Origin: Bradyrhizobium manausense
GTDB taxonomy: Bacteria > Pseudomonadota > Alphaproteobacteria > Rhizobiales > Xanthobacteraceae
Direction of reading: 5' to 3'
Length of the DNA: 32,000 bases
Assembly: GCF_018129685.1 (NCBI RefSeq)
Contig: NZ_JAFCLG010000002.1
Coordinates: 397,377 to 429,376 of the forward strand
In this document: piece after piece, positions 5,070-31,681 of the stretch
Numbering within the stretch: position 1 is the first letter of the stretch
How the letters are laid out: every line of letters starts with the position of its first letter
The notes under the pieces: model-generated
Seen by the model: only the letters and a program-made list of their open reading frames with translations
Database searches by the model: none
Told to the model about the DNA's origin: nothing
Made by a program: the position numbers and the translations under genes

Positions 5070-5163
5070 TGGCTCTCTCCGTTGTCCACGCGAGGAATGG
5101 TGCCGCTGTTCATGATGTTGTGGGGTTGGGTCGCGAACCGGCGTGCCGGTGCGCGTGACCAAA

Positions 5164-6066
5164 TCAGAGGTTCTTGTACCAGGCGGCGATGCGGCCGAGT
5201 TCCTGATCTGCCTCGGGTGCGCGGCCGGCCAGCGCGGGAAAGACATGTTGCATGCCGGGGACCACTGACAGCACGGTCTTCACCCCTTGGGCTTTCGCCT
5301 TGGCATGAAGCGTTTCGGAATCGCTGAGCAGTGTCTCGTTCCCGCCGGCGTTGATGTAGAGCGGCGGAAAGCCCTTGAAGTCGTTTTCGAGAGGGTTCGC
5401 GAGCGGATCGTGCGGATCCGTCTTGCCGCCGAGGAACATGCCAGCCATTGCTTCGAGAATCGGCCGGCCGACCAGCGCGTCGGTAGCTGAATTGGTCTCG
5501 AGCGTGGGTCCGCGTAGGGCCATATCGAGCCACGGAGAGAAGGCGATCACGCTGCCGGGCAGTGGCAGGCGAAGATCGCGCATCTTGAGCACGCTCGCGA
5601 TAGCGAGATTGCCGCCCGCGCTGTCGCCCGCGGTCGAGATCTTCTTTGCATCAAAGCCCTTCTCGAGCAGAGCCTTGTAGGCGGCGACGGCATCCTCGAT
5701 CTGGGCGGGGAAGGGATGCTCGGGCGCTCGCCGATAGTGGAGCACAACAGCAGTGACATTGAGGGCCTTAGCCAGATGTCCCGCGAGTTTCCGGTGGCTG
5801 TCGGCCGAGCCGACTGCAAAGCCGCCGCCATGAGTGTAGACGATTGCGCGCGAGTTATCGGCGCCAACAGGAAGCGCCCAGATGGCCTCGACACCGCCGA
5901 CGCGATCGCTCTTGTAGCAGACATTCTCTGGTTCCAGCGCCGGCTGACCCCATTCGTCAAACATACTACGCAGGTTCGCGATCGACAAATTCGGATCGGC
6001 AACCATGCGGTTGGTCCAATCCTGATAGAGTGCACGCAGAAAATCAGCTTGCTTGCTCGAAGCCAT
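5164..6066 (-). CDS. Alpha/beta-hydrolase esterase, hormone-sensitive-lipase (family IV) type
   Basis: HGGGF oxyanion-hole motif, GDSAGG nucleophile elbow and a C-terminal ..GMQHVF.. His. Strong SD GGGGAGGAAAACCT-ATG. Confidence 0.9.
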   Translation of the reverse strand: MASSKQADFLRALYQDWTNRMVADPNLSIANLRSMFDEWGQPALEPENVCYKSDRVGGVEAIWALPVGADNSRAIVYTHGGGFAVGSADSHRKLAGHLAKALNVTAVVLHYRRAPEHPFPAQIEDAVAAYKALLEKGFDAKKISTAGDSAGGNLAIASVLKMRDLRLPLPGSVIAFSPWLDMALRGPTLETNSATDALVGRPILEAMAGMFLGGKTDPHDPLANPLENDFKGFPPLYINAGGNETLLSDSETLHAKAKAQGVKTVLSVVPGMQHVFPALAGRAPEADQELGRIAAWYKNL

Positions 6067-12417: not shown

Positions 12418-13677
12418 TCAGATCGTCTTTTTGAAGACTGGAACAATGGGCCCGTATACTTCGCTCATGGAGCGGTTGCCTTTCCCGTCATAGAAAAACA
12501 GCAATCCGCCCATTCTACTGTCAACGTTAGAAAGAAAGCTCACCAAACGTTCTACTTCCCATGCCGCATCCGTTGTATCCAGGTTCACCAGACGGCTTTC
12601 ACCAGGTGCAAGCGGCTCCGGATGGTCGATGACAAGGCCGTTCCGGGGGACCAGCTCCTTCGGAAATTTCGAACTGACTGCCGCCACCGCCGCAGGAAGA
12701 CTCTTATTTATGAAACGCAGGTTAGCGGTGGTGAACTCGCCAACGCTCACGGGTTGATCGGACGTATTGGTCATCTCTACGCTCAGGCGCATGGACCGAC
12801 CGGGAACGTCGTACTCGGCCCTCTTGAACTTGATTTCAACCGCGTGGGGCGGCTTGGGCAGTGGTGGAGTGGAAAGAGACCCCGATTGAAGCGGAACCAG
12901 TTCTGGAAACTCGGACGTCGTTCTGGTGTATCCGACCAGCACCACGATCGCCAAAAGGACCAGCAGGGCCGCCGCAACTTTGTCGTCCATCGGCGTGATG
13001 AGAAGGTCCTCTCGCCCCTTCTTGACCACGAGCCAGCGCGAAATGATGAGGGGCCTGCGCAGCCACCATAGGATCCACACCGCGGCAATCAGCCCGAACC
13101 CAAACTGCCACATCTGCACGCGTGAAACGCCAAACGTTTGCAGATCGTCGATCTTGTTTCCAGTCAAGGTCGTGAGCGGATCCTTGAAATCCGCTTCGTT
13201 GCCGCTGACAGTTATCCATTCTCCCGGCCCAACGACCGCCCCGGCCCCATGGATGTTCATGACCGGATGAAGGTGCCACTGTCCCACCTTACGCGCCTTC
13301 ATAACGAGTTTGAAGTCATAATCCCGTCCGACGATCAAACCCTTGGTGGACTGCCGTGCGGGAATTTCGTTGATGTACGATTCTACGCGGGTCATGACGG
13401 CGCCGGGCGAGCCGTTGGAAAGGAACACCAGATTGGGCAGACTCACCGAATCCGGCCAATCGTTCAATAAGTGAAACTTGCCCTGGACGGTTACTGTATC
13501 GTTGACGTTAAGCGCATCGGTTGACCAAGTGACGTCATACCAATGCACAGTGCGCGTTCTGATGTAAGGCTCGGTCGCCCGCTCGCCGTGCGCGAATGCG
13601 GCCTGATCCATAAGGGAAAATAGCAATGTCGTCGCGGCCCAAACGAGCAACGTCGCCTTTTTCATTATCTTGCTCAT
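12418..13677 (-). CDS. pmoB: Copper membrane monooxygenase subunit B (PmoB/AmoB family)
   Basis: The signal peptide ends AFA, so the mature N-terminus is HGERATEPYIRTRTVHWYDVTW (compare PmoB HGEKSQAAFMRMRTIHWYD). The WHLHPV HxH motif, two central TM helices and a C-terminal cupredoxin-like domain are present. The start overlaps the pmoA stop (ATGA, 13674-13677). Confidence 0.9.
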   Translation of the reverse strand: MSKIMKKATLLVWAATTLLFSLMDQAAFAHGERATEPYIRTRTVHWYDVTWSTDALNVNDTVTVQGKFHLLNDWPDSVSLPNLVFLSNGSPGAVMTRVESYINEIPARQSTKGLIVGRDYDFKLVMKARKVGQWHLHPVMNIHGAGAVVGPGEWITVSGNEADFKDPLTTLTGNKIDDLQTFGVSRVQMWQFGFGLIAAVWILWWLRRPLIISRWLVVKKGREDLLITPMDDKVAAALLVLLAIVVLVGYTRTTSEFPELVPLQSGSLSTPPLPKPPHAVEIKFKRAEYDVPGRSMRLSVEMTNTSDQPVSVGEFTTANLRFINKSLPAAVAAVSSKFPKELVPRNGLVIDHPEPLAPGESRLVNLDTTDAAWEVERLVSFLSNVDSRMGGLLFFYDGKGNRSMSEVYGPIVPVFKKTI

Positions 13678-14477
13678 AGAGCACCCGCATCGATTTTAGC
13701 GCCATAAAGCTCCTTGAAGCGGTATCCCACCGGTATGTATTTGGGTGTGCAGGCGACCACACCCATCAACCAGAACACCGAGTAGGCGAACATGCAAACG
13801 AACGCAGAAAAGAACGCTGAGACCCAGTTGGCGGAGTCGCCGAACGTGCGCAAGGTTCCGCGTTCGATAATTCTTATGTATTCAGGCGTGCCGGAACGAG
13901 GGAAGACGTAGCCGATGATATCGGCAACAGACGCCATCTCACCCATATGCTCTGCTGGCTGGAAATATGGCGCCAGATAAATCCAGTTTGTCGGAAAGAA
14001 CGAGAGACCATAAATAACGCCGCCGAACACGGCCGTTATAACCCAGCTTCGGCTCAGCACAAGGATGAAGTCGAGTGCCATCGCTCCGACTAGACCGGTC
14101 GCTGGAACAACGAGACTGAGCGGGAAGTAGGCCATGCCTTCCCAAGCATGGTATCTGACAATCCAGACGCCGATCAGAAACAGAAGTGCGCTAGCTGTCG
14201 CTCCGATTGGCAGGCGAAATAGAGTCCAGAAGATCGCCTGAAATGCCGCGGCCGACATTATGGAGACTATCGGCGTTATCAGAATCCAATACTGTCTGTC
14301 TTTCCAGTCAATAAAAAAATCCCAGTCCCCAGCGAAAAGGAGAAAATGGATGTGCGTAACGGACCATACAAGGAAGGCAGCTATGACGACAATCAGGTAG
14401 TCGAAAGTTCGTGAATAGCGCGCTATTCTTGGCGACATTTCTGCCGCAGCTAAAATTGCTTGATCGTTGTCAGTCAT
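13674..14477 (-). CDS. pmoA: Copper membrane monooxygenase subunit A (PmoA/AmoA family)
   Basis: Blocks GDWDFFIDWKDRQYW, FRLPIGAT, VRYHAWEGMAYFPLSLVVPA, SWVITAVFGG and GTPEYIRIIERGTLRTFG are collinear with conserved PmoA/AmoA blocks. Confidence 0.92.
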   Translation of the reverse strand: MTDNDQAILAAAEMSPRIARYSRTFDYLIVVIAAFLVWSVTHIHFLLFAGDWDFFIDWKDRQYWILITPIVSIMSAAAFQAIFWTLFRLPIGATASALLFLIGVWIVRYHAWEGMAYFPLSLVVPATGLVGAMALDFILVLSRSWVITAVFGGVIYGLSFFPTNWIYLAPYFQPAEHMGEMASVADIIGYVFPRSGTPEYIRIIERGTLRTFGDSANWVSAFFSAFVCMFAYSVFWLMGVVACTPKYIPVGYRFKELYGAKIDAGAL

Positions 14478-14480
14478 GCT

Positions 14481-14490
14481 CCCCCCCCCC
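14481..14490 (-). repeat. G10 homopolymer (C10 on the + strand) 3 nt upstream of the pmoA ATG, occupying the SD position
   Basis: Read directly: 14471 cagtcatgct cccccccccc ggtaattc. On the mRNA strand this is ..ACCGGGGGGGGGGAGCATG. Confidence 0.9.
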
Positions 14491-14532
14491 GGTAATTCGT
14501 ATTCTTATGATTAGGCAACGGTTCTTTGCCGA

Positions 14533-14580
14533 AGGCGGTGTCCTACCTGTCAGTCAGTCGATTCAGCAGAGACACCGCCT
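14533..14580 (-). promoter_or_regulatory. Perfect 10-bp stem with a 28-nt loop in the pmoC-pmoA intergenic spacer (candidate mRNA processing or stability element)
   Basis: AGGCGGTGTC (14533-14542) is the exact reverse complement of GACACCGCCT (14571-14580). No U-tract follows on the mRNA strand, so this is not a classical intrinsic terminator. Confidence 0.4.
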
Positions 14581-14620
14581 ACAGTCGCATTGTCCGCCAT
14601 CGCCGGCATCAGCCAAGGCG

Positions 14621-15400
14621 TCAGGCTTTCGCCAAGTTTGCGCCATCGATCTCTTTGAAAAGCTCCGCCATCCTCATGGTCGCCTGAAGAAGGACGCCGC
14701 CAAGAGCAAAGCCGGTCCACCCAAGAACCGGGAAGCCCCAATGGAGCGGATGGCTGAAGATTTCTTCAGTGAGCCAGAACGCGTGGCCCCACTCGTTATA
14801 GCCAAGGTTCGGCAGAATGAGCCCGGGCCCGAGCACAGCCATGATGAGCGGCACCGAATAGCCTTTTGAGAATTTGGGAATCCGCGTGGTAGCATATAGA
14901 AGGCTGCTAACGCCCAAGATGATATACAGTGGAATACAAGCGTAAAATACGACGATATGGCTGGGAGTAAGCGCGGTGTCGCGAATCACGGTTTGATGCC
15001 AAGTGGCATCGCTCTCACCAAAGAAGCTAGCGATCCAAAGAAAAGAAAACGTATACAGCAAGAACCACGCGACGAGGCTAAAGTAGCGGCGCAGTTCCGT
15101 TTCGGCGTCGATTTTGTCGAGGTTCTTATCCCGGGTGAGCCAAAGGTAGGCCCAAATGGCGAAGCCCACCCCGAAAATAAGCGGTACCTCGACTTTGAAC
15201 AGCGTCAGCCAGTAGGTCGCAAATTCGGGGGATGTCGAATCCAGGCCGTACTTGAATGCAAATGCCTGCTGGTAAAGCCGAAGCCCTACGTAGATGGCGA
15301 GCAGCACTCCCCAGGAGATGGCCACCGGCACGAGATTGATAAGCTTTTTCGTATGTTGCGGGTCAGCCGCCCGCGGCTCAGATTCTAAGATGGCATGCAT
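14621..15400 (-). CDS. pmoC: Copper membrane monooxygenase subunit C (PmoC/AmoC family)
   Basis: ESDATWHQTVIRDTALTPSHIV contains the D..H..H metal site. NEWGHAFWLTEEIFSHPLHWGF contains the N..H..H site. I prefer the ATG at 15400 (MHAILE..), 8 nt behind GAGGAGG. The track start at 15436 adds 12 codons. Confidence 0.92.
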   Translation of the reverse strand: MHAILESEPRAADPQHTKKLINLVPVAISWGVLLAIYVGLRLYQQAFAFKYGLDSTSPEFATYWLTLFKVEVPLIFGVGFAIWAYLWLTRDKNLDKIDAETELRRYFSLVAWFLLYTFSFLWIASFFGESDATWHQTVIRDTALTPSHIVVFYACIPLYIILGVSSLLYATTRIPKFSKGYSVPLIMAVLGPGLILPNLGYNEWGHAFWLTEEIFSHPLHWGFPVLGWTGFALGGVLLQATMRMAELFKEIDGANLAKA

Positions 15401-15581
15401 AGTCCCGCCTCCTCTCGCTGATGATAACTTAGTCAACTATTGTCCTATGACTTGGGATACGGTCCTTTAGTATTAGGGTCCCACCTGCCCGCGGTCGTTG
15501 CTGAAGCGCCTGACGGACCTATCCGACTGGCGTCCGGCCCAAGGCCCTGATCCCGGAAAGTGGATTCCGGTATCTTGGCCT

Positions 15582-19743: not shown

Positions 19744-20919
19744 GTGGGTAGGACCGATCACCGGTTCAGCAATGAATCTGGCGTCGCCGTCGTCCAGGCG
19801 AAAGCGTCGTCGGCAGTCGAGGCGGCGGCGGAGATTGCCCGGCAACTGCCCAGGGACGGACTGGCGATTGTTATCGTCTTTTGTTCGCCTTGCTATGATC
19901 CGCACGAGTTTGCCGCTGAAATCGCTGAAATCTATGGACCCATTCCGGTCTATGGCTGCACGACTGCTGGCGAACTTGCGCCCGGAGGCTGGGATGACAA
20001 CAGCGTTGTCGCGCTGGGATTTAGCGCGCAGGACTTTAGCGCAGTCGCGAGGCCATTACTCGATCTCGCCCAATTTCGGGTCGAGGATGGCCGCAGAATT
20101 GGCGCCGAGCTGCGGCAAGAATTTACACGATGTTCGCCAGAAGTAGCGGATCGACAATCCTTTGGACTTTTGCTGATTGATGGCATGTGCAAACGCGAGG
20201 ATGTGGTGATGTCGGCGCTCTACGCGTCGCTCGATAATATTCACGTCGTTGGAGGATCCGCGGGCGACGGTCTGCGTTTTGGACAGACGTGGGTCTTTTG
20301 CGACGGCCAGGCCCATACCGACGCCGCGGTGCTGATCATTCTGACAACGTCACTGCCCTTTCGCCTATTCAAATGCGATAACTTCGAGCCGACATCGACA
20401 AAGATGGTGGTAACCGAAGCTGATATAGAATTGCGCGTTGTCAAGGAGCTGAATGCGGAGCCGGCTGCCCAGGAATATTCGCGTGCAGTTGGAATCGGTG
20501 ACACCCACCTTGATATGTTTTCGTTTGCTTCTCATCCCGTTCTTGTCCGGGCCGGCGGCACGTACTATGCACGCTCGATCCAGCGGGTAAATCCTGACGA
20601 CGGATCTCTCAATTTTTACTGCGCTATCGATGAAGGAATGGTCCTCACCGTAGCGAAAGCCCGTAATCCGATCGGAGCAATGCTCGAGCTGTTTGCTGAA
20701 ACACGGGCAGAGATCGGCGAGGTCTCGCTCTATATCGGCTTTGAATGTCTGTTTCGGCGGCTGGATGCGGAACAGCATCAATTCGCCCGCGACATGTCTG
20801 AACTTTATCGCGAAAATCGGGTGGTCGGGTTTCACACCTACGGCGAACAGTACCGCGCAATGCACCTGAACCAGACATTGACCGGAGTTGCGATCGGCAA
20901 GAGGCCGGTTTCGCCATGA
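19744..20919 (+). CDS. FIST-domain sensor protein (FIST_N/FIST_C, NosP-like architecture)
   Basis: Soluble 391-aa protein with FIST-type blocks: ..IVFCSPCYDPHEF..PVYGCTTAGEL.. and ..IHVVGGSAGDGLRFGQTWVF... Its C-terminal block is ..LYIGFECLFRR......NRVVGFHTYGEQ. GTG start behind GAGAGAGGGA. The stop overlaps the kinase start (ATGA). Confidence 0.85.
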   Translation: MGRTDHRFSNESGVAVVQAKASSAVEAAAEIARQLPRDGLAIVIVFCSPCYDPHEFAAEIAEIYGPIPVYGCTTAGELAPGGWDDNSVVALGFSAQDFSAVARPLLDLAQFRVEDGRRIGAELRQEFTRCSPEVADRQSFGLLLIDGMCKREDVVMSALYASLDNIHVVGGSAGDGLRFGQTWVFCDGQAHTDAAVLIILTTSLPFRLFKCDNFEPTSTKMVVTEADIELRVVKELNAEPAAQEYSRAVGIGDTHLDMFSFASHPVLVRAGGTYYARSIQRVNPDDGSLNFYCAIDEGMVLTVAKARNPIGAMLELFAETRAEIGEVSLYIGFECLFRRLDAEQHQFARDMSELYRENRVVGFHTYGEQYRAMHLNQTLTGVAIGKRPVSP

Positions 20920-22268
20920 TGCCGCAAGATCAAGATTCCGTAGAGGCGCTGCAACGGGAGACCACGAAACTCAGGAAGATCAACGCCGCGCTGATGTCAC
21001 GCGTGGAACGGTCGATGGATCAGCAATCCAATGCGTTTTCATTGTTCGAGACGGCTATCGCGCTGGATCATCAGGTTCGCAGCCGAACCCAACAATTGCA
21101 GGAGGCGTTACGTTCGATTGAGCGCACCAACGGCTATCTCTATCGTGCCAAACAGCAGGCCGAGGCGGCCAGTTCGCTGAAATCTTCCGTGTTGATTTCC
21201 GTAACCCACGATCTCCTACAGCCGTTAAATGCGGCGAGGCTGACGCTCTCGGCGTTCGCAGAGATGGCTGTTTCGGAACAGGGAACCGCGCTCATCGAGC
21301 AAGTTGACCGGTCCTTGCTTACGCTTGAGGATTTGCTAAGAACACTGCTCGATATTTCCAAGCTCGACGTCGGCGTTTTGAAGCCGGAACCGCGTCCGCT
21401 ATTGATTTCGTCCTTGTTCGACCCGCTTAAACAGGAATTCGCGCCGTTTGCCGCGAAGCGAGGCTTGTCATTGACGATTCAGCCGTCGTCCCACGCGGTG
21501 ATTTCAGACCCGATGATGCTTCGCCGGATTTTGCAGAATCTGTTGGCCAACGCCCTCAGGTACACTCAGAAAGGCAGAGTCCTGATGGGTTGCCGGCAGA
21601 AGGGCGACAAACTCCAGATACAAGTTCATGATACCGGACCTGGTATACCCGAAGGCCAGCGGCAAGCGATCTTTCTGGAATTCCAGCGCGGTGAAGCAGG
21701 CGACGGAGATGAAGCCGGTTTCGGGCTTGGTCTATCGATCGTGCGCCGCTTCGCGACGGCTCTCGGCCATGAAATTCATCTTGCTTCGCGCGTAGGTCAC
21801 GGCTCGTCCTTTTCTGTCACCCTGCCTCGTACAGAACTCGAGGCGTACCCGGAGACGGGGCGCGAGCTTCAATATGTCGACTTCCAATACAGCGGACTCG
21901 AAGGTGCAAAAATACTGCTCGTTGAAAACGATTCATCGAGCGCGGAGGCGATGGCCTTCCTGCTTGAAGAATGGGGATGCGACGTCGCCAAGACGATATC
22001 CGCAGCAGATGCGTTGGAGCGAATCGGAGCACTCGGCGGCGCGCCTGATGCGATCATCGCGGATCTTCATCTAGACGGCAATGAAAGCGGTCTGGAGGCC
22101 ATCAGTGCGGTACGCCAGCAGGTCAGGATCGAAATTCCCGCCATGATAGTCACTGCGGACTATTCGGTAGAGGCAGCGAGGGAGGCTTCGATCTACGGCA
22201 TTGAACTCCTTAAGAAGCCTGTCAAACCCGCTGAGATGCGATCTCTGTTATCATTCCTGTTGGCTTGA
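20916..22268 (+). CDS. Cytoplasmic hybrid sensor histidine kinase (coiled coil, HisKA, HATPase_c, receiver)
   Basis: H-box SVTHDLLQPLNAARL, N-box LLANALRYT, G1 HDTGPGIP and G2 GFGLGLSIV. The C-terminal REC domain reads KILLVENDSS...DAIIADLHLDG...KKP. No TM segment is present. Confidence 0.9.
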   Translation: MMPQDQDSVEALQRETTKLRKINAALMSRVERSMDQQSNAFSLFETAIALDHQVRSRTQQLQEALRSIERTNGYLYRAKQQAEAASSLKSSVLISVTHDLLQPLNAARLTLSAFAEMAVSEQGTALIEQVDRSLLTLEDLLRTLLDISKLDVGVLKPEPRPLLISSLFDPLKQEFAPFAAKRGLSLTIQPSSHAVISDPMMLRRILQNLLANALRYTQKGRVLMGCRQKGDKLQIQVHDTGPGIPEGQRQAIFLEFQRGEAGDGDEAGFGLGLSIVRRFATALGHEIHLASRVGHGSSFSVTLPRTELEAYPETGRELQYVDFQYSGLEGAKILLVENDSSSAEAMAFLLEEWGCDVAKTISAADALERIGALGGAPDAIIADLHLDGNESGLEAISAVRQQVRIEIPAMIVTADYSVEAAREASIYGIELLKKPVKPAEMRSLLSFLLA

Positions 22269-22322: not shown

Positions 22323-23018
22323 TTACGTCTCGATACGCTCAGATACCTGATGCTTGACCGGAGGAGAACAGATCAGACTCGCAAAATCGATTTTCGAGAT
22401 TTCTATGATGGCATTGGTACGGCTAAATACGTTCAATTTGCGTAAAATATCCGACACATGAACCTTGACCGTAGTTTCGCAAATCTTAAGTTCATAAGCA
22501 ATTTGCTTGTTCTGTAGACCCCTGCGCAACATGTCCAGTACACGCAGTTGCTGCGGCGTCAGATCGTGAAGGCTTTTAAGCAGCTCCCGATTGTCGACCC
22601 TGGGTCGTCGCGTTCTTGCCGCTTCCCGATAGCGCTTGGGAAGATAGATGGTTCCTCGCAATACTTCACCAATGGAGTCCGTGAGTTCGCGCTTCGATGT
22701 CGATTTGGGAATGTAACCGGAGACCCCGAGCGCGAGAACGCTCTGGACAATTTCCAAATCCTCGTAGCCAGAAACGATCACGATGGGACTCTTCGGAAAT
22801 GCTTTCCGAATGCGCATGACACCGGAAAGCCCGATGGTGCCGGGCATCGAAAGATCGAGCAGGACAAGGTCTATTTGATGGGTCGAAGAAAGCACTTCCA
22901 ATGCCTCGTCGATCGACGCTGCTTGGAAGATTTCCGCGTCGGGTATGGCGACGCAAACGGCGCTTTCCAGCGCTTCGCGAAACAAGGGATGGTCTTCGAC
23001 AATCAAAAATCGCGTCAC
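22323..23018 (-). CDS. LuxR/FixJ (NarL)-family response regulator, paralogue 1
   Basis: REC domain (RFLIVEDHPLFREAL..LVLLDLSMPG..IPKS) plus a LuxR HTH (LTPQQLRVLDMLRRGLQNKQIAYELKICETTVKVHVSDILRKLNV). I prefer the GTG at 23018. The 51 upstream codons of the track ORF look non-coding. Confidence 0.88.
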   Translation of the reverse strand: MTRFLIVEDHPLFREALESAVCVAIPDAEIFQAASIDEALEVLSSTHQIDLVLLDLSMPGTIGLSGVMRIRKAFPKSPIVIVSGYEDLEIVQSVLALGVSGYIPKSTSKRELTDSIGEVLRGTIYLPKRYREAARTRRPRVDNRELLKSLHDLTPQQLRVLDMLRRGLQNKQIAYELKICETTVKVHVSDILRKLNVFSRTNAIIEISKIDFASLICSPPVKHQVSERIET

Positions 23019-23286
23019 GTTGCAACGATCCTTGTATCGGTCACAATATATCCGGAACGAAATAATGCAGAACGTCCCTCCATATAGCCAGTTGCGACCT
23101 GTGGCGGAAGTCACTTTTTGGAGCTGGCCGTAAGCTGCGAACCATCGTTTGCCGGGGCCGTCCGAGGCCATTGATCGATGCAGGACGGCATTCGCGACCT
23201 ACTACCATGTAGTCCTTGCGTCATGGTAAGTCTTGTAGATCATAAAGGAAAATCCCCGCAGGCTGGGGAAATACTCTGGTGCCGAT

Positions 23287-24134: not shown

Positions 24135-24818
24135 TCATGTCGGCTTCGCGCGATCAAGCCGAGAGGCTTGCTGTTTCGGATCCGACAAATTGATCTTGCC
24201 AATCTCGATGATGGCCTTGTTGCGGCTGAAGAGCTTCAGCTTGCGCAAAATCTCCGTAACATGTCCCTTGACGGTCGATTCTGCGAGTTTGAGTTCGACG
24301 GCGATGTGCTTGTTCTGAAATCCGCACCGGATCAGATCCAGCACGCGAAGCTGCTGGGGGGTTAGTTCCCGCAGCCGCGCGCGCAGAACCTGCGCGAAAT
24401 CTGCGTCGCATGGCTCGTTTCGAACCACAAAATTTTTCGGAACGGAAATCGAACCACTGAGCACGCGCGCGATGGAAAGGGCCAATTCACTCTTTGACGT
24501 CGATTTCGGTATATATCCGGCAGCACCGAGCGAAAGCGCTTCACGAACGATTTTCTGGTCCTCGTCGCTCGATACGATCGCGACAGGCAATCGAGGATAG
24601 GTTTCGCGCAGGCGCAAAAAGCCCGAAAATCCTGCGGCATCCGGAAGGCAAAGGTCGAGCAGGGCGAGGTCGATTCCTTGTTCAGACGAAAGGATATCGA
24701 GCGCACCCTTGATCGACATCGACTCGAGGATCCGGGCATCCGTATGAGCCAGACGCACTGCGTTGCCCAGGGCTTCGCGAAACAGTGGATGATCGTCGAT
24801 AATCAGAAAGCTCGTCAT
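24135..24818 (-). CDS. LuxR/FixJ (NarL)-family response regulator, paralogue 2
   Basis: MTSFLIIDDHPLFREAL..LALLDLCLPD..IPKSTSKSEL.. plus LTPQQLRVLDLIRCGFQNKHIAVELKLAESTVKGHVTEILRKLKL. By eye it is roughly half identical to the 22323-23018 product. Confidence 0.9.
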   Translation of the reverse strand: MTSFLIIDDHPLFREALGNAVRLAHTDARILESMSIKGALDILSSEQGIDLALLDLCLPDAAGFSGFLRLRETYPRLPVAIVSSDEDQKIVREALSLGAAGYIPKSTSKSELALSIARVLSGSISVPKNFVVRNEPCDADFAQVLRARLRELTPQQLRVLDLIRCGFQNKHIAVELKLAESTVKGHVTEILRKLKLFSRNKAIIEIGKINLSDPKQQASRLDRAKPT

Positions 24819-24951: not shown

Positions 24952-26163
24952 TTATTCCGCGGGGCTTTGTACGGTCATCAGATAAGCGTACACGTTGTTA
25001 AGCTGGTTATCTTTGAATACTTCGTTCCATGCGGGCATCCCCTTCGCCGGGCGTCCCTCGTGAACGGTCTTCCAATACGTATTGCGCATGTTATCGCCAT
25101 ACCGAACTCGTAGCCGTCGAAGGTCGATGCGACGTTCGCTCTGTACGGCGTCAGGACCGTGGCAGTGTGCGCACGTACCGTTGAAAATTTCGCGCCCCTC
25201 GCTCACCGCTTCAGGAGTTGCTACGGGCGTCTCGGCTGCTGAATTGGCCGCCGTAAGGGTGGCTGTCGCCTGTGCCAGAACGACGGGTAGCGCCGGTGTG
25301 TCCAAGGCGGCATGCATGACCGCTGGCTGCGCGACTGCGCTCAGCTTGATTGGGATGTCGGTCGGAAAGCCATACTTGGCCGAGAGGTCGGGAATCAGTG
25401 CTGCCAGCCCCGGGATCTGCGCATCAACCTGATCCCGCAATTCCGTTGAGCCTTTTGCAAAGCCAATTGCCACGGGCCACAGCAGGCCGTCGCCATCGGT
25501 GCTCTGGATATCGTAGCGGCCGCCATATTCGGTCTTGTTGAGCCAGCCTGCGACGGGACCCCAGATGAACGTGACATCGACCTTGCCCTCGTCGAGCGCC
25601 CTCATGCCTTCTTCGGGGCTAAGTACGGTTTTCTTTTCTATATCATCGCGCAGCGCAAGAATATTTTGGGGCGTCGATTGATATTGCACCGCCACGCGGA
25701 GTTGTTTGAGATCGTCGATGCTGGAAACCTTGCGTCCCTTTGCGGTCACCAGCGCATAACCTTCCTTGATGATCGGCTTCGAGAAGATGACCGCCGGCCC
25801 CATGAAATCCTCGCTGGGCGTCAGGCCGATCATGGCATCGCATTGTTTGCCCAGCAGCGTGACGCGTACTGTGCGTTTGCCGAAATAGGATTTGTACCAG
25901 TCATAGCTGACCGGACGCCCCAGCGCCTTGCCGAGAGCCTGCCCAATTTCCAGGTAGACGCCCGGCATCGAGGGATTATCGCTTGAGAATGGCAGATTGG
26001 TCGGATCGGCGCAAAGCCGCAGCGGCTGCGCGTCGTCGGCGCCGGCCTGTGAAGCCGGCGCCAGAAGCGTGAGAACGACAACAACAGCGGGGATACTCGC
26101 GTGGACACAAGCGTTGCATTTGTCGCTGGACGATCCACGTGTGCCCAGTAGCTTTGCTAGCAT
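24952..26163 (-). CDS. Fusion protein: MoxJ/XoxJ-like periplasmic SBP domain, Ala/Pro/Thr linker, C-terminal mono-haem cytochrome c (XoxG / methanol-metabolism cytochrome c type)
   Basis: Signal peptide, then ..LRLCADPTNLPFSS..GVYLEIGQALGKALGRPVSYDW..VDVTFIWGPVAGW.. (type-2 SBP, MoxJ-like). A ~45-aa low-complexity linker (AVAQPAVMHAALDTPALPVVLAQATATLTAANSAAETPVATPEAV) follows. The cytochrome part is GREIFNGTCAHCHG....GRPAKGMPAW, with the CAHCH codons at 25159-25173. I prefer the ATG at 26163, behind GGGAGTTGAGG. It starts 24 nt after the xoxF stop. Confidence 0.8.
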   Translation of the reverse strand: MLAKLLGTRGSSSDKCNACVHASIPAVVVVLTLLAPASQAGADDAQPLRLCADPTNLPFSSDNPSMPGVYLEIGQALGKALGRPVSYDWYKSYFGKRTVRVTLLGKQCDAMIGLTPSEDFMGPAVIFSKPIIKEGYALVTAKGRKVSSIDDLKQLRVAVQYQSTPQNILALRDDIEKKTVLSPEEGMRALDEGKVDVTFIWGPVAGWLNKTEYGGRYDIQSTDGDGLLWPVAIGFAKGSTELRDQVDAQIPGLAALIPDLSAKYGFPTDIPIKLSAVAQPAVMHAALDTPALPVVLAQATATLTAANSAAETPVATPEAVSEGREIFNGTCAHCHGPDAVQSERRIDLRRLRVRYGDNMRNTYWKTVHEGRPAKGMPAWNEVFKDNQLNNVYAYLMTVQSPAE

Positions 26164-26187
26164 CCTCAACTCCCTGTCGTTTAGTTT

Positions 26188-27906
26188 TTATTGAACCGCA
26201 AAGACGAACAATGCGCCGCCTTCTGGCGCGGCGGCAGTCATTTTCTTGCCCACATCTCCAAGGAACGCCGGAAGAGATGCGGTACGGCCAACGACCACGG
26301 CTACATATTGCTTGCCGTCCACCGAATAGGTGACCGGACCAGCGCCGATACCAGAACCAAGGTTTTTCTTCCAGAGAATCTTACCATTTTTCGCATCGAT
26401 CGCGTGGAAGTCGCCGTGCAGGTTGCCGTAAAATACAAGGTTGCCTCCGGTCGCCAATGTACCGCCGTTAAAAGGCAGGTCCTGCTTGATCGACCAGACC
26501 TTCTTGCTGTTCACCGGATCCCAAGCTACGAGTTCGCCAAGGAATCCGCCTGGGCCTTCCTTGGTCGGAAATTCGGCGCCGAGGTAGAAGACGCCGCGCT
26601 TGTAGGAGACATCGCTCACCGACCAATCCATGCAGACGTTGTTGGTCGGAATATAGACGAGGCCGGTTTCCGGACTGAATGACATCGGCTGCCAGTTCTT
26701 GCCGCCGATCAGGTTTGGACAGATGTCCTTGGCGGGATGGCCGGGACCTGGGCGCTTGTCAGGATCCTCGACCGCTCGCATTGTGGTTACGTCCCATTTC
26801 TTGGCCCAGTTGGTCGAAGCGACGAATTTTTCCGCCGAAAGAACCTTTCCGGTATCGCGATTGGCGACGAAGAAGAAGCCGTTGCGATCCGCCTTCATTA
26901 ACGCCGGAACTTCCTTTCCATCCATTTTCAGGTTGGCAAGGACGAGTTCGTTCACGCCGTCATAATCCCAAGCGTCAGCGGGAGTCTGCTGAATGTGCCA
27001 CTTGATCTTGCCGGTGTTGGGATCGAGCGCAAGCGTCGACGCCGTGTAGAGGTTTGTCAGCTTGCCGAAATTGCCATCACCAGTGGACCGAACGCCAGTG
27101 TTCCAGGGGCCAGGGTTGCTGGTGCCCCAGTAAACCGTATCGGATTTGGCATCATAAGAGCCGACCAGCCATGCAGCACCACCACCATGCAGCCCGGTGT
27201 CGCCCTTCCATGTGTCGCTGCCAGGCTCGCCTGGTGCCGGAACGGTGAAGGTCTGCCAGACCTGTTTGCCGGTGGCGATGTCGAACGCCTGAAGCGATCC
27301 GCGAACACCATATTCGCCGCCGCCAAAGCCGGTGATGACCTTATCGCGCACCACCAACGGCGGCGATGTGATGACCGATCCCTGCTTGTAATCGACAACG
27401 GTCGTGGTCCAGATCGCCTTACCTGTCGCGGCATCAAGCGCCGTCAGCTTACCGTCAAGGCGCCCGACAAACAGCTTGCCGTCGGCATACGATACACCTC
27501 GATTATTCACGTCGCAGCAGGCGTATTGCAGCACGTCATCGGGAATTTCCGGCTCATAGGTCCACTTGCGCGCGCCAGTCGCGGCATCGAGCGCATAAAC
27601 GTATTTCGGACCCCACGATGTGGTCACATAAAGCGTATTGCCGATGACGAGCGGCGAGGACTCATTCGAGCGCAATGATGCGAGTGAGAACGAATACACC
27701 AGCGACAGCTTGCCGACGTTCTCGGCGTTGATTTGCTTAAGCGGGCTGAAGCGCGTGTTGGCGTAATCGTGCCCTGCGACGGCCCACTGATTAGAATCGG
27801 ACACTGCTTTGACGACCGAGTCGTTGGCGCTTACGCTAAACGTCCCGGCAACCAGACTGGCGACGATGGACACGCCGGCCAAGAATCCCCTGCTCCTCAA
27901 CGTCAT
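26188..27906 (-). CDS. xoxF: PQQ-dependent methanol/ethanol-family dehydrogenase, XoxF-type (lanthanide-ligand Asp present)
   Basis: Signal peptide, then ..NQWAVAGHDYANTRFSPLKQIN... Vicinal Cys pair at YACCDVNNRG, plus GGGEYGVRG and WGTSNPGPWN. WDYDGVNE carries the D-Y-D motif (codons 26959-26967). The second Asp distinguishes Ln-dependent XoxF/ExaF/PedH enzymes from Ca-dependent MxaF (D-Y-A). SD GGGAGGATACAG-ATG. Confidence 0.88.
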   Translation of the reverse strand: MTLRSRGFLAGVSIVASLVAGTFSVSANDSVVKAVSDSNQWAVAGHDYANTRFSPLKQINAENVGKLSLVYSFSLASLRSNESSPLVIGNTLYVTTSWGPKYVYALDAATGARKWTYEPEIPDDVLQYACCDVNNRGVSYADGKLFVGRLDGKLTALDAATGKAIWTTTVVDYKQGSVITSPPLVVRDKVITGFGGGEYGVRGSLQAFDIATGKQVWQTFTVPAPGEPGSDTWKGDTGLHGGGAAWLVGSYDAKSDTVYWGTSNPGPWNTGVRSTGDGNFGKLTNLYTASTLALDPNTGKIKWHIQQTPADAWDYDGVNELVLANLKMDGKEVPALMKADRNGFFFVANRDTGKVLSAEKFVASTNWAKKWDVTTMRAVEDPDKRPGPGHPAKDICPNLIGGKNWQPMSFSPETGLVYIPTNNVCMDWSVSDVSYKRGVFYLGAEFPTKEGPGGFLGELVAWDPVNSKKVWSIKQDLPFNGGTLATGGNLVFYGNLHGDFHAIDAKNGKILWKKNLGSGIGAGPVTYSVDGKQYVAVVVGRTASLPAFLGDVGKKMTAAAPEGGALFVFAVQ

Positions 27907-28064
27907 CTGTATCCTCCCGATATGATTTGCCGCGTTCGCAACTCGATGAACTGGGTTCGCGGGGTGCTTATGCTAAGCTTCGACGTGCACGCTTGCGGCG
28001 CGCCGTCGCGCCGGAATTACAGCATCAGAATTTGGTACATCGTATAGGCAGAAGGTAGTAGTCT

Positions 28065-28076
28065 CGATTATAATCG
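28065..28076. promoter_or_regulatory. 12-bp perfect AT-rich palindrome CGATTATAATCG containing TATAAT, about 160 bp upstream of xoxF
   Basis: Read directly. It is followed by GGAATTGTTCC (a GGAA/TTCC inverted repeat). I found no convincing -35 element on either strand. Confidence 0.2.
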
Positions 28077-28129
28077 GGAATTGTTCCTGCCGTCGAACGA
28101 GGAGAAGCTCGCGCGCGGTTGCTTTTTGA

Positions 28130-28820
28130 TAGTGCAGTGCAGCAAGATGAAGCCTGAAGCGCGAATTGTTGCCTCCTTACCATCGCTTCGGATTCATCGC
28201 GTTGGTGTTGTTCGTGCTCCCCCCGCAACCGGCAAGGCCGATGGCTTCGACACCGAGCATCTGTTCGGATTTACAATCGGAACCGACGTCGGCAATGTTG
28301 GCGAGAGGGAGGTCAAGGGATCAACGACGGCGCGTTTGGCAAAACAACCGGTTCGTATGGTAGCGCTGTGTCCCAGACGCTCTCCGCAGAATTCGTGCCT
28401 TTCGAGAAATTCCGGACCGAATTTTGAGCAGCGATCAATCCTCGCGATATTGCGGGCGTAAGCGGGCTCGAAGACCGGCGACAGGTTGCCTTCGGCGGCT
28501 TTTCCGCCGACTTTAGGTACTGGCTTCTCGACCGCGCGACTGCGGCATTCGGATTGGCTGTCGGTGCGGAGTCGCATTCGGGAGCCGCGCCATAGCGAGC
28601 AACTGCTGCACGAGTCGGCCGATTCGATCGACGGACGCGACAATATGACGAAGCGCCCTCTCTCGTGCCATTGGGCGGCTCAACCTTGGACCCTTGACGG
28701 TCGCTATAGCTACTCTACCGAGAAATGGAACGCGGTGGACAAGCTTGCGGCACTTGTGGAGCTCATTCTCAATCCCATTGTTGACAACATCGTAGAGTTT
28801 AAGGGCGAGCGAATGTGAGG
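28130..28820 (+). pseudogene. Decayed gene for an exported protein of unrecognised family (several frame changes and stops)
   Basis: A signal-peptide-like piece (..RFGFIALVLFVLPPQPARP) lies in one frame and ADGFDTEHLFGFTIGTDVGNVGEREVKGSTTARL in the next. After that, GSYGSAVSQTLSAEFVPFEKFRTEF-TGA-AAINPRDIAGVSGLEDRRQVAFGGFSADFRYWLLDR.. continues in a third frame. No single frame is intact. Confidence 0.3.
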
Positions 28821-29280
28821 TAAGCCACCTGATAGCGGAATTAAAATAGGCGAGGTGCTATTCTTTGGTCCTGGTTGCATCGGATGCTGGGCCTTGCTAT
28901 CTGCCGAATACTTGAAGTTTTACTCTCACATTCTCAACCGACAATGTCGTCTTCGCTGATGGCAATCGCGAGCATGAAATCCTGCGCATCCAGCGCGAGA
29001 TTGCACAGCGCATCAAACTGCGCCTCGTTGAACGCGTCACGGAGAATGTCACCGATCTATGCCTGCAGTGCAGCGACACTGCTAATGGCTGAGCTGATGC
29101 CCAAAGCGGGTGACGATGCCGCGCTTGCACGACCGATCAGCCTGCATTGTCCTGGGCTAGACATATGCCGGCGGCACGTAGTGACTTTGATGCCAATTGA
29201 CGTTTCGACGACGCTTTTCGGCAGCGTCTGGTTCGCCCGCATGCATACAGAGAAACCACAATACGGTGGAGAAGAATGAG

Positions 29281-29652
29281 ATGTCGCTTCGTACTCTCCT
29301 GACCGTCGCTGCTTTTGCAGTATGGCCCAACTGGGCGTTTGCCCATGCCGCGCTGGTTGGATCGAGTCCTGGCAGCAGGGCTGTGGTCACTCACATGCCC
29401 GATCATATCGATCTTTGTTTCAATGAGCCTGTCGAGGTCAAGTTCTCCACCGTGCAGATCACAGATGAAAAGGGCACGACCATACCTATTTCGGAGCTTA
29501 AGCACGGCGCCGACCCCAAGTGTCTTAGCGCTACCGTTCCGCCAGCGGCTGCAGGGATTTATACAGTGAAGTACCGCGTGCTCTCTCAGGACGGTCATGT
29601 GGTTAAATACGGCTTCCAGTTCACGGTGAGGGAAAGACAGCCTGTACCGTGA
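29281..29652 (+). CDS. copC: Periplasmic copper-binding protein CopC
   Basis: The signal peptide ends WAFA, so the mature N-terminus is HAALVGSSP. This is followed by ..IDLCFNEPVEVKFSTVQITDEKG..GIYTVKYRVLSQDGHVVKYGFQFTV, the CopC/YobA pattern with an N-terminal His. The ATG at 29281 sits behind GGTGGAGAAG. The track start at 29197 adds 28 codons. Confidence 0.88.
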   Translation: MSLRTLLTVAAFAVWPNWAFAHAALVGSSPGSRAVVTHMPDHIDLCFNEPVEVKFSTVQITDEKGTTIPISELKHGADPKCLSATVPPAAAGIYTVKYRVLSQDGHVVKYGFQFTVRERQPVP

Positions 29653-31646
29653 CAATCGTTGCCTTCATCGCAGTTTGGAAGACTTTAGGAACCCTGTGCC
29701 TTGCGTGGTTGATCGGCGGGCCCGTTTTCGTCTGGTTGAGCGGACGCTCCAAAGAAAAGGTCATTTTGTCATGGCGTTCTGTTGTCAGAAGAAGCTTTCC
29801 GTGGGCAGTGCCCCTGTTCATTCTGTCAATCATTTTTGTCTTATTTGCTGAGGCTGCGTCGACAGCTGAGCTATCGCTTATAGAGAATCTTGCCCGCCCC
29901 GATGTGCTGAGGACTTTCGCGTTTCAAACACGGGTAGGCCAGTTGTCTATGTTCAGACTGATCGCAGGTATGGCGTTGTTTGCGCCGACGATGTTTCTGG
30001 CAAAAGCCGCGACCGACCACGCAGAAGAGACCGGGCTGTTTTTGGTGCTGGTGGTCGCCGCCGTGGTCTGCGCAATGGGGCCGTTGAACGGACACGCTGG
30101 TGCGGACATCGGATGGTCAACAGCCTGTCGTATCATTCACGTATGCGCCGTCAGCATATGGATTGGGGGCCTGCCTGGTTGGCTAGGGCTCGTATTTTTG
30201 GTCGCAAAGGCTCCAGACATACACCGTTGTGCCTACGCCTTCTCCGCCATGCTCCAGTTCTCTCGTTTGGCGATCATCTGTATGGCTACGACGATCGTTT
30301 CGGGGGCATTTATTGCTTCTGAATATGTTGGCAGTCAGGGCGATCTTTTGGGCACTCCCTATGGGCTCGCGATTTGCGGTAAAGCGCTGCTATTGCTTGG
30401 CGTATTAGCGATTGCGAACCTCGTCCGCGCGGTGCTGCTGCCGCAGCTTCGGTGCGCTGAGCCAACGACTGCCTTTCATATGACGGCGGTACGCTGGGTA
30501 ACTCTCGAATTTACATTGGCGGTGGGTATTGTCGGCTTGGCCAGCCTTCTCTCGCAACTGACGCCTGCGCTCCATGATCAGCCGTATTGGTGGTTACCGC
30601 TGCGTATATCGATTGCCGCAACTTGGCCAGTCCCTTCTACTCGGATGTTTGTTGCGGGAGGGCTGCTGATTGCGGTCGCCGGATCTTTGATTGCGTGCCG
30701 TTACTTCGCGCCTGGCCTCTGGCGGCGCTCCGCGTTAGGTGTCTCCGTATTGGCAGGGGGCGCCGTGGCTCTGTCGCAACTCGCCGTGCCGAGTTTTCCA
30801 GATACATTTCGCCGATCTGAAGTTCCTTACCTGACATTGTCCATTTTCAGGGGAAAACAACTCTTCGAAGATAATTGCACTGTCTGTCATGGAATGGGCG
30901 GGCGCGGCGACGGACCAGGTGGAAAGTCGTTGAGGCGACCACCAGCCGATCTCACTGCGCCGCATACGGCGCTTCATACTGCGGGAGACATGTTCTGGTG
31001 GATCTCCAATGGAATACCAGAAAGCGGAATGCCGGGATTTTCCACGGCCTTTACGGAGCTGGACCGCTGGGATGTAATCAACTTCATGCGCGCATTTTCG
31101 CAAGGCTTCGAGGCACGCGTGCTTTCGCTTTCTATTATACCATTGCGCCCCTGGGTCGGTGCACCGAACTTTTACTTCGAAAGAGTTGGAGGCGAACCAA
31201 AGGCGCTGAGTGATTATCGGGACCACACCAATGTGCTTCTTGTGTTCTTTTCCCCCGAGAATAAACAAGATCTTGAAAGGTTGCACACCTTGGCATCGGC
31301 GCGGGTTAAGCTGCTTGCTGAGGGGCTGGAAATACTCGTTGTTGCTCGTAGCGAGAAGCCATTTCCGAACAATGGCCTTACGGTGGTCGACGACTCAACT
31401 GGGGAGGTGCGGGAGAGCTATTACCTTTTTGCTAGGACCTTGCAAGATCAGGGCGATGGAGAATCAATAGAGATGAAAAAGGACCGCATTGAGTTTCTCA
31501 TCGATCGGTTTGGTTACATCCGGGCTCGATGGATTCCCCAAGACGAAAAAGAAGGGTGGTTCAATACCGAGCGTTTGAGGGAGGAAATCGCCAAACTAAA
31601 TACGGAGCCGCGCATATTCCCGCCGCCCGACGATCATGTCCATTGA
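29649..31646 (+). CDS. copD: Three-domain fusion: CopD polytopic membrane domain, mono-haem cytochrome c, and a Cys-less thioredoxin/peroxiredoxin-like domain
   Basis: The GTG start overlaps the copC stop (GTGA). The first ~390 aa form multiple TM helices with CopD-like blocks (..IHVCAVSIWIGGLPGW..). The cytochrome part is GKQLFEDNCTVCHGMGGRGDG....IPESGMPGF, with the CTVCH codons at 30876-30890. The tail is ..KALSDYRDHTNVLLVFFSPENKQDLERL...LEILVV....FLIDRFGYIRARW.., a redoxin fold pattern lacking CxxC. It ends PPPDDHVH. Confidence 0.85.
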   Translation: MTIVAFIAVWKTLGTLCLAWLIGGPVFVWLSGRSKEKVILSWRSVVRRSFPWAVPLFILSIIFVLFAEAASTAELSLIENLARPDVLRTFAFQTRVGQLSMFRLIAGMALFAPTMFLAKAATDHAEETGLFLVLVVAAVVCAMGPLNGHAGADIGWSTACRIIHVCAVSIWIGGLPGWLGLVFLVAKAPDIHRCAYAFSAMLQFSRLAIICMATTIVSGAFIASEYVGSQGDLLGTPYGLAICGKALLLLGVLAIANLVRAVLLPQLRCAEPTTAFHMTAVRWVTLEFTLAVGIVGLASLLSQLTPALHDQPYWWLPLRISIAATWPVPSTRMFVAGGLLIAVAGSLIACRYFAPGLWRRSALGVSVLAGGAVALSQLAVPSFPDTFRRSEVPYLTLSIFRGKQLFEDNCTVCHGMGGRGDGPGGKSLRRPPADLTAPHTALHTAGDMFWWISNGIPESGMPGFSTAFTELDRWDVINFMRAFSQGFEARVLSLSIIPLRPWVGAPNFYFERVGGEPKALSDYRDHTNVLLVFFSPENKQDLERLHTLASARVKLLAEGLEILVVARSEKPFPNNGLTVVDDSTGEVRESYYLFARTLQDQGDGESIEMKKDRIEFLIDRFGYIRARWIPQDEKEGWFNTERLREEIAKLNTEPRIFPPPDDHVH

Positions 31647-31681
31647 AGGCTGTGTCTAACCCAGCAAAAGGAAGAGTCATC

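Follow-up and report, generated by a model that had tools for sequence, protein, structure and literature searches.

A conserved gene fusing an MxaJ/XoxJ-type binding domain to a cytochrome c beside a lanthanide-type pyrroloquinoline quinone dehydrogenase in Bradyrhizobium

Introduction

We analysed a 32,000-nucleotide stretch of the Bradyrhizobium manausense genome (RefSeq assembly GCF_018129685.1, contig NZ_JAFCLG010000002.1, positions 397,377 to 429,376 of the forward strand), hereafter the window, in which a single gene encodes a periplasmic binding domain of the MxaJ/XoxJ type (J) followed by a mono-haem cytochrome c. The gene lies directly after that of a dehydrogenase of the pyrroloquinoline quinone (PQQ)-dependent type. 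The role of MxaJ, XoxJ and PedG has been debated for decades: they were proposed to be an additional subunit or a docking factor, or to act in regulation, and the latest proposal is a chaperone for PQQ insertion. In canonical clusters J and its cytochrome (G) are separate genes, and a preliminary description of the window had singled out their fusion. They are indeed fused here, but the arrangement is not peculiar to this genome and has a precedent in cytochrome cGJ of Methylacidiphilum. What the window reveals is a large conserved family in which J is covalently tied to a cytochrome c and which is strictly co-inherited with one dehydrogenase lineage.

Results

Fused gene and protein

The two-gene cassette comprises the following features, in order of transcription.

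26188-27906, minus strand: PQQ-dependent dehydrogenase, methanol/ethanol family (572 residues; WDYDG motif and a vicinal Cys-Cys pair in ACCD)
26170-26174, minus strand: Shine-Dalgarno sequence GGGAG, 6 nucleotides before the ATG at 26163 (read from the sequence)
24952-26163, minus strand: fused gene (403 residues plus the stop codon at 24952-24954; from the open reading frame list, the translation and two Pfam domains in one frame)
26041-26163, minus strand: predicted Sec-type signal peptide (residues ~1-41; basic N-region, hydrophobic core IPAVVVVLTLLAPA, likely cleavage after SQA, read from the translation)
25339-26031, minus strand: MxaJ/XoxJ-type periplasmic binding domain (residues ~45-275; RLCADPTNLPFS motif and invariant Cys51/Cys108 pair)
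25234-25338, minus strand: flexible Ala/Pro/Thr-rich linker (residues ~276-310)
24955-25233, minus strand: mono-haem class I cytochrome c domain (residues ~311-403; PF13442, E 2.7e-10)
25159-25173, minus strand: haem motif CAHCH (residues 331-335)
25036-25038, minus strand: axial Met376 of GMPAW (read from the sequence)

The translation runs uninterrupted from the ATG at 26163, with no stop codon or frameshift. This ATG is a likelier start than an in-frame TTG at 26169, two codons further 5', because GGGAG sits 6 nucleotides upstream of it. The gap between the end of the dehydrogenase reading frame (26188) and the ATG is 24 nucleotides, and Pfam places SBP_bac_3 (residues 48-250) and Cytochrome_CBB3/Cytochrom_C (residues 319-398) on the single chain. 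An AlphaFold2 model built with 33 homologues has three parts: a binding domain at residues 45-275 (predicted local distance difference test, pLDDT, ~90), a disordered stretch at 276-310 (pLDDT <50) and a folded cytochrome domain. Residues 1-42 also have pLDDT <50, and the signal peptide that they contain varies in length and is poorly conserved among homologues.

The preliminary description had read the gene in much the same way, and its account of the architecture stands. The single frame at 24952-26163, opening 24 nucleotides after the dehydrogenase gene, was as described. The signal peptide and MoxJ-type substrate-binding domain were borne out by XoxJ and MxaJ as top profile matches, with TIGR03871 matched over its full length although below its cut-off. 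An Ala/Pro/Thr linker with a junction at about 25203-25344 agrees with the modelled disorder at 25234-25338, and the mono-haem cytochrome domain with CAHCH and GMPAW is confirmed by Pfam, by a class I fold and by invariant ligands. The absence of a stop or frameshift at the junction, also noted there, is matched by the intact translation, by 69 contigs and by one frame in 80/80 loci, as set out below.

Family distribution and the reality of the junction

The exact 403-residue protein is recorded on 69 public contigs (NCBI, JGI, ENA and Logan assemblies), and near-identical variants of the same length occur on dozens more. Among ~5.8 billion protein clusters searched, more than 120 clusters of 357-438 residues matched at E 5e-158 or better, many from named Bradyrhizobium species. 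At the level of 50%-identity representatives there were 115 matches at E 1e-30 or better, dozens of which cover both domains by reading of the match table. Thus the survey of domain architectures that had been suggested in the preliminary description places the J plus cytochrome arrangement in a large conserved family.

Species-representative genomes were scanned with a narrower family alignment, and the best 80 of 501 candidate loci were kept; all counts over 80 loci refer to these. Every one (80/80) has one open frame across both domains and exactly one CxxCH. The carriers comprise many Bradyrhizobium along with Rhodoblastus, Roseiarcus, Rhodopila and Rhizobacter, complete chromosomes included. 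The family reaches down to 25-28% identity with the fusion intact. Linker lengths differ by whole codons only, while both flanking domains are conserved.

Two lesions were seen, neither of them at the junction: a frameshift in the binding domain, on two JGI contigs (P0353 and P0347), and an internal TAA in the copy of one fragmented metagenome-assembled genome (MAG; locus L114, G727:C468:6043-7191). Three proteins initially considered as stand-alone cytochromes (P0252, P0264 and P0266) were rejected, being fragments or chimeric contigs and not split genes. An assembly or annotation artefact joining two genes through a missed stop or frameshift, for which nothing was found beyond the two lesioned public variants, is excluded by the comparative data, namely the identical protein on 69 independent contigs, the single frame in 80/80 species genomes and a linker that varies only in whole codons between conserved domains.

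The pair of fusion and dehydrogenase genes is rare and patchy, occurring in 6/401 genomes of a phylum-wide sample, 8/151 genomes of the family containing a Rhodoblastus carrier and 5/201 genomes of the host family. A plasmid collection gave no match.

Binding domain

The best NCBIfam match of the binding domain is TIGR03871 (MoxJ_2, XoxJ type), at 91.3 bits over positions 2-230 of the 232-position model. Both curated J cut-offs lie higher: 212 bits for TIGR03871 and 258 bits for TIGR03870 (MoxJ), on which the domain scores 37.5 bits. The separate XoxJ encoded elsewhere in the host genome scored 302 bits on TIGR03871; it is 25% identical to the fusion's binding domain.

When the PDB was searched with a profile of the family, the top three matches were XoxJ 6ONP (5.7e-21), MxaJ 5SV6 (3.3e-17) and MxaJ 9ISM_B (5.1e-17), with amino-acid-binding proteins following only from 1e-10, well behind. 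In structural comparison by Foldseek, XoxJ (template modelling score 0.78, root-mean-square deviation 3.0) had the highest identity among the matches, at 25%, and amino-acid-binding proteins scored similarly to it. A CADPxNxPFS-type motif and both cysteines align with XoxJ 6ONP and with the host's own XoxJ, and neither Cys51 nor Cys108 varies among 37 diverse representatives of the family spanning down to 25% identity. We consider the assignment of the domain to a divergent branch of the MxaJ/XoxJ family sound, because XoxJ and MxaJ lead the profile search, XoxJ has the highest Foldseek identity and TIGR03871 is matched over its full length.

Linker and cytochrome domain

The linker of the window protein spans ~35-46 residues. 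Across 114 family members it ranges from 27 to 82 residues (median 44) and consists of 27% Ala, 11% Pro and 9.5% Thr; it is of low complexity and its sequence is unconserved.

The cytochrome domain has the residues needed to hold a single haem. The CxxCH residues and Met376 are invariant in the same 37 representatives, and a single CxxCH with an xMP motif is present in 117/118 family sequences. Modelled alone, the domain folds with a pLDDT of 85.5 and Foldseek returns class I cytochrome folds. These are not discriminated from one another by this search, in which the best E value is 2.6e-3 and XoxG/cytochrome cL ranks 24-45.

The preliminary description had called the cytochrome XoxG-like, and this part of it does not hold. 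At E up to 0.01 neither TIGR03874 (XoxG) nor TIGR03872 (cytochrome cL) matched the window fusion (P0001), and among the 37 representatives these models produced weak matches in only two and three, respectively. The XoxG encoded elsewhere in the host genome scored 247 bits on TIGR03874, and its alignment with the fusion cytochrome is confined to the haem motif. XoxG and cytochrome cL are proteins of 150-170 residues, compared with ~90 residues for the fusion's domain. Profile matches were instead to CcoP haem domains, cytochrome c6 and the haem domain of quinohaemoprotein alcohol dehydrogenases (1YIQ, 5.9e-11; 1KV9, 2.5e-6). The model of the PedF cytochrome c550 matched weakly in 37/37 representatives, the window fusion scoring 32 bits against a cut-off of 122. 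By these comparisons the domain is not of the XoxG/cL type and resembles CcoP, cytochrome c6, PedF-like cytochromes and the quinohaemoprotein haem domain. A separate 117-residue cytochrome from a paralogous locus of the host genome, described below, aligned with it at 24% identity (E 8e-10).

Partner dehydrogenase

The gene upstream of the fusion encodes a clear member of the methanol/ethanol dehydrogenase family, scoring 688 bits on TIGR03075 against a cut-off of 480. Its translation has a second Asp at position +2 from the catalytic one (D-x-D, the lanthanide signature, in WDYDG) and a vicinal Cys-Cys pair. The preliminary description had taken it for xoxF, and it was right as to a lanthanide-type PQQ dehydrogenase but not as to a core XoxF. 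Against solved structures the enzyme scored 457 bits with the XoxF of strain SolV, 408 with XoxF1, 393 with XoxF5 and 312-360 with MxaF, and ~400 bits with ExaA, PedE, PedH and the quinohaemoprotein alcohol dehydrogenases. The XoxF5 of the host genome behaved quite differently, reaching 1068 bits with XoxF5 structures and >=588 with every solved XoxF1, XoxF2 and MxaF, and <=385 with ethanol dehydrogenases. Because its pattern of scores departs from that of the host's XoxF5, to which it is only 40% identical, the window enzyme is judged from its sequence to be a separate lanthanide-type lineage, between the methanol and ethanol dehydrogenase groups and outside the XoxF1/2/5-MxaF core. It possibly belongs to XoxF3 or to a PQQ alcohol dehydrogenase type of the Keltjens scheme (type 9), the references compared having been solved XoxF1, XoxF2, XoxF5, MxaF and alcohol dehydrogenase structures.

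Fusion and dehydrogenase go together. In 79/80 loci the gene immediately upstream, in the same orientation, is a dehydrogenase orthologue (58-92% identity); in the exception, from one MAG (L085), a gap of ~1.7 kb (4273-6039) separates the two genes. Of 201 genomes sampled evenly across the host family, five have the fusion, and exactly these five also have the dehydrogenase orthologue (87-100% identity). A PQQ dehydrogenase, of 574 residues, likewise precedes a distant fusion with 27% identity, in a genome (G396) from a different taxonomic family of that order. Given the 79/80 adjacency, the identical pattern of presence in 5/201 genomes and the recurrence of a PQQ dehydrogenase beside the 27%-identity member, fusion and dehydrogenase behave as one inherited unit.

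The cluster around the distant member (L106:6294-14969) consists of the PQQ dehydrogenase, the fusion, a YVTN beta-propeller protein, a second PQQ dehydrogenase, a tetratricopeptide repeat protein, a SoxH-like metallo-beta-lactamase and a fused SoxYZ. Its make-up recalls the accessory genes of the Pseudomonas ped cluster. PedH/PedE are the closest matches of the dehydrogenase beside this fusion, so that J-cytochrome fusions have partners from two dehydrogenase lineages at least.

A guanine- and cytosine-rich hairpin with a weak T tract lies at 26214-26233 on the minus strand, within the last 45 nucleotides of the dehydrogenase coding region, and could conceivably attenuate read-through into the fusion gene. 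The promoter and terminator scan found nothing past chance level; its 7 terminator-like sites, with 3.7 ± 2.2 expected, are a modest excess over chance.

A 150-residue metagenomic protein (P0234) was also observed in which an orthologous PQQ dehydrogenase continues from its C-terminal strands directly into a cytochrome c domain, with neither J domain nor linker between. It is either a quinohaemoprotein-like natural deletion derivative of the two-gene cassette or the product of a chimeric contig.

Other J-cytochrome fusions

Two metagenomic proteins (P0243 and P0268) are J-first fusions of another kind. They score 270 and 295 bits on TIGR03871, above its cut-off, and the best match of their cytochrome is TIGR03874. 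They are apparently genuine XoxJ::XoxG-like fusions, separate from the window family, and suggest more than one origin of J-cytochrome fusion. In Methylosinus trichosporium OB3b, MettrDRAFT_1694 adjoins xoxF3, is labelled XoxJ, is described as a cytochrome c and is cerium-induced (PMC12482762, Table 1). It may be a relative, as a candidate J-cytochrome fusion of this kind. Searches with a Rhodoblastus member of the fusion family and across 151 genomes of that member's taxonomic family returned no named Methylosinus match, and five carrier genomes gave no pmoA-family match, in a search run without a positive control. Our search of the open literature for J-cytochrome fusions found the verrucomicrobial case alone. 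The window family is a real, large and conserved variant, itself undescribed, of a kind of fusion that was already known.

Neighbourhood and other loci in the genome

Downstream of the fused gene lies a set of regulatory and sensory genes.

24135-24818, minus strand: LuxR/NarL-type response regulator (best NCBIfam match ErdR; same position in Bradyrhizobium relatives)
22323-23171, minus strand: second ErdR-like LuxR-type response regulator (Pfam, NCBIfam)
20916-22268, plus strand: hybrid histidine kinase (Pfam; syntenic with the cassette in Bradyrhizobium)
19744-20919, plus strand: FIST sensor protein (Pfam; syntenic with the cassette in Bradyrhizobium)

The same succession, with two ErdR-like LuxR-type regulators, the hybrid histidine kinase and the FIST protein after the cassette, is found in other Bradyrhizobium, and the FIST/kinase synteny is kept in ~50/80 loci. 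The regulator at 24135-24818 likely controls the cassette.

On the upstream side, two other Bradyrhizobium loci (L017 and L019) have a COXG-family gene and a divergent three-subunit molybdenum hydroxylase. Neither the COXG nor the hydroxylase genes are found in this window, where a 149-residue open reading frame at 28194-28643 is unrelated to them. The region at ~28000-31650 instead contains unrelated short reading frames and a CopD::cytochrome c fusion gene (29649-31646). As the upstream genes differ, synteny ends immediately before the cassette on this side.

A copper membrane monooxygenase operon lies ~10 kb away from the cassette (12418-15436, minus strand), with strong Pfam matches to the AmoC, AMO/PmoA and Monooxygenase_B families. 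Many Bradyrhizobium with the cassette showed no such operon within the fetched loci of 13-17 kb, so that an obligate pairing of operon and cassette is improbable.

The host genome also has unfused genes of both kinds. Its XoxF5 has XoxG (L100:10452-10970), XoxJ (L101:5662-6540) and a glutathione-dependent formaldehyde dehydrogenase nearby. On contig C34 of the genome (G000), at L100:14997-18211, a PedE/PedH-like PQQ dehydrogenase is followed by the 117-residue cytochrome c mentioned above and then by a 312-residue binding-protein-like gene. This paralogous locus is unfused and its order is opposite to that of the window fusion. The same contig has the XoxF5/XoxG/frmA cluster, a third PQQ dehydrogenase paralogue and the TIGR03871-type XoxJ.

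Discussion

We propose that the fusion serves the adjacent PQQ dehydrogenase as a dedicated accessory protein of the periplasm, its two domains acting as tethered helper and as electron acceptor, and we put the probability of this at roughly 0.6. The protein would be exported through the Sec pathway, and the cytochrome c maturation system would attach haem to Cys331 and Cys334, with His335 and Met376 as axial ligands. The MxaJ/XoxJ-type domain would bind the dehydrogenase and, by analogy with MxaJ, may help to load PQQ and metal. The disordered tether of 27-82 residues would hold the cytochrome domain beside the enzyme at high local concentration. There it would take single electrons from PQQ reduced by oxidation of what is presumably an alcohol, and pass them towards the respiratory chain. 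Dehydrogenase and fusion would act together as a quinohaemoprotein alcohol dehydrogenase built from two chains. MxaJ is known to bind apo-MxaF and to mediate PQQ insertion (PMC12276312), and earlier proposals had J modulate the contacts between dehydrogenase and cytochrome (PMC12997753).

Some of the evidence pulls the other way. By sequence comparison the cytochrome domain comes from a different family than the proven acceptors XoxG and cytochrome cL. The J scores lie below both curated cut-offs, and conserved binding of the dehydrogenase is therefore an extrapolation. In addition, MxaJ has been described as a chaperone that acts transiently and leaves the mature enzyme (PMC12276312), which is not easily squared with permanent docking.

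This last point leads to the alternative that the J domain is a transient chaperone for PQQ or metal insertion while the cytochrome acts free of the enzyme, so that fusion provides co-expression and 1:1 stoichiometry and not positioning. Besides the departure of MxaJ from MxaF once PQQ is loaded (PMC12276312), it is consistent with the existence of unfused J-like proteins at ~48% identity, of which P0139 and P0164 are complete (267-271 residues) with signal peptides of their own, and with the separate cytochrome and binding-protein genes beside the paralogous PQQ alcohol dehydrogenase of the host genome. On the other hand, the fusion is intact in 80/80 loci and down to 25-28% identity, and at least two further types of J-cytochrome fusion exist (P0243/P0268 and the Methylacidiphilum XoxG:J). 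Since an operon already gives co-expression, repeated fusion argues for a functional advantage of the physical linkage, and we regard the chaperone-only explanation as rather unlikely.

The family of the cytochrome raises another alternative, that the haem domain is a redox-control module. It would reduce or re-oxidise the cofactor or the disulfide of the vicinal Cys-Cys pair as the enzyme is activated, or sense redox state, while another cytochrome carries the respiratory electron flow. That the domain lies outside the XoxG/cL family fits with this, as do other c-type cytochromes encoded nearby in relatives, such as one of 126 residues near pqqA in L017, and the regulatory roles proposed for PedF- and PedG-like proteins (PMC12997753). 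However, the domain resembles haem domains that are true acceptors in quinohaemoprotein alcohol dehydrogenases. No other small cytochrome gene was noticed beside the dehydrogenase in the window or in two annotated Bradyrhizobium loci, the 80 loci not having been checked for one. A control function of this kind is improbable in our judgement.

It is more improbable still that the protein is a ligand-binding component for transport or signalling, which captures a small molecule for a transporter or sensor (for instance PQQ, an alcohol, an aldehyde or a chelated lanthanide) and to which the cytochrome is incidental. The public annotation reads 'polar amino acid transport system substrate-binding protein', amino-acid-binding proteins score about as well as XoxJ in Foldseek, and a set of FIST, kinase and regulator genes adjoins the fusion gene. 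Yet the conserved cassette has no genes for an ATP-binding cassette (ABC) permease or ATPase, profile searches rank XoxJ and MxaJ clearly above amino-acid binders, and J proteins have no known transporter partner (PMC12997753).

The tethered helper and acceptor remains our preferred explanation, and the strict inheritance of a J domain, covalently tied to a cytochrome c, with one dehydrogenase lineage is genetic evidence from nature that J and the acceptor of electrons act at one site of the enzyme. A broader possibility, which we advance tentatively and consider doubtful as it stands, is that J-type proteins in general go beyond transient chaperoning and are stable adaptors through which a PQQ dehydrogenase meets its cytochrome. 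The window family, as dehydrogenase plus J-cytochrome chain, would then form a quinohaemoprotein in trans. Were this so, the repeated independent fusions would record a ternary complex of J, cytochrome and dehydrogenase that also forms where the genes are unfused, and three fusion types would count towards it: the window family, the TIGR03871-type P0243/P0268 and the Methylacidiphilum XoxG:J.

The family also offers a tractable proteobacterial system, as culturable Bradyrhizobium strains such as Bradyrhizobium sp. Ce-3 and B. oligotrophicum S58 carry the fusion, whereas the characterised fusion belongs to a thermoacidophile that is harder to handle. It also draws attention to a lineage of lanthanide-type dehydrogenases, so far uncharacterised, in bacteria that are common in soil and nodules.

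Comparison with known systems

The closest precedent is the verrucomicrobial cytochrome cGJ. Methylacidiphilum strains encode xoxF-xoxJ-xoxG:J, and the physiological acceptor to which XoxF passes its electrons is cytochrome cGJ, the product of xoxG:J (PMC6688271, PMC8498564). It is known from M. fumariolicum SolV, M. kamchatkense Kam1 and M. infernorum V4 (Versantvoort et al. 2019, cited in PMC6688271 and PMC8498564). By these accounts, both it and the window protein are single periplasmic polypeptides with a c-type cytochrome and a XoxJ-type domain, encoded in the operon of a lanthanide-dependent PQQ dehydrogenase. They differ in several respects. In cytochrome cGJ the cytochrome apparently comes first, going by its published name and description (PMC6688271), whereas J comes first in the window fusion. 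Its J part is described as truncated and accompanied by a separate, full xoxJ (PMC6688271), whereas the window fusion has a full-length J and no adjacent separate J gene. Its cytochrome is XoxG/cL-related by description, compared with the domain of ~90 residues, like CcoP, cytochrome c6 and PedF, found here. The hosts are Verrucomicrobiota and not Pseudomonadota, and the partner is XoxF and not the different dehydrogenase lineage of the window.

The separate XoxJ and XoxG of XoxF5 clusters are likewise accessory to a lanthanide-type PQQ dehydrogenase, and both systems have the J fold with its Cys pair and CADPxNxPFS motif. There, XoxJ (TIGR03871) and XoxG (TIGR03874) are encoded by two genes, in contrast to one in the window.

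In the ped system of Pseudomonas putida, PedF (cytochrome c550) and PedG similarly combine a small class I cytochrome and a J-like protein with a PQQ alcohol dehydrogenase, and PedG/PedF-like genes flank exaF in M. extorquens (PMC12997753). ErdR-like regulators stand alongside these genes, as they do in the window. Unlike the fusion, the PedF/PedG systems have separate genes, in the order cytochrome then binding protein.

In quinohaemoprotein alcohol dehydrogenases the haem domain takes electrons from PQQ within one chain. The type II enzymes (1YIQ, 1KV9 and 1KB0) share with the window cassette a class I cytochrome c on a flexible linker beside a PQQ propeller. In these enzymes the haem domain is carried by the dehydrogenase itself, whereas in the window it is carried by a J-type domain and the dehydrogenase is a separate chain.

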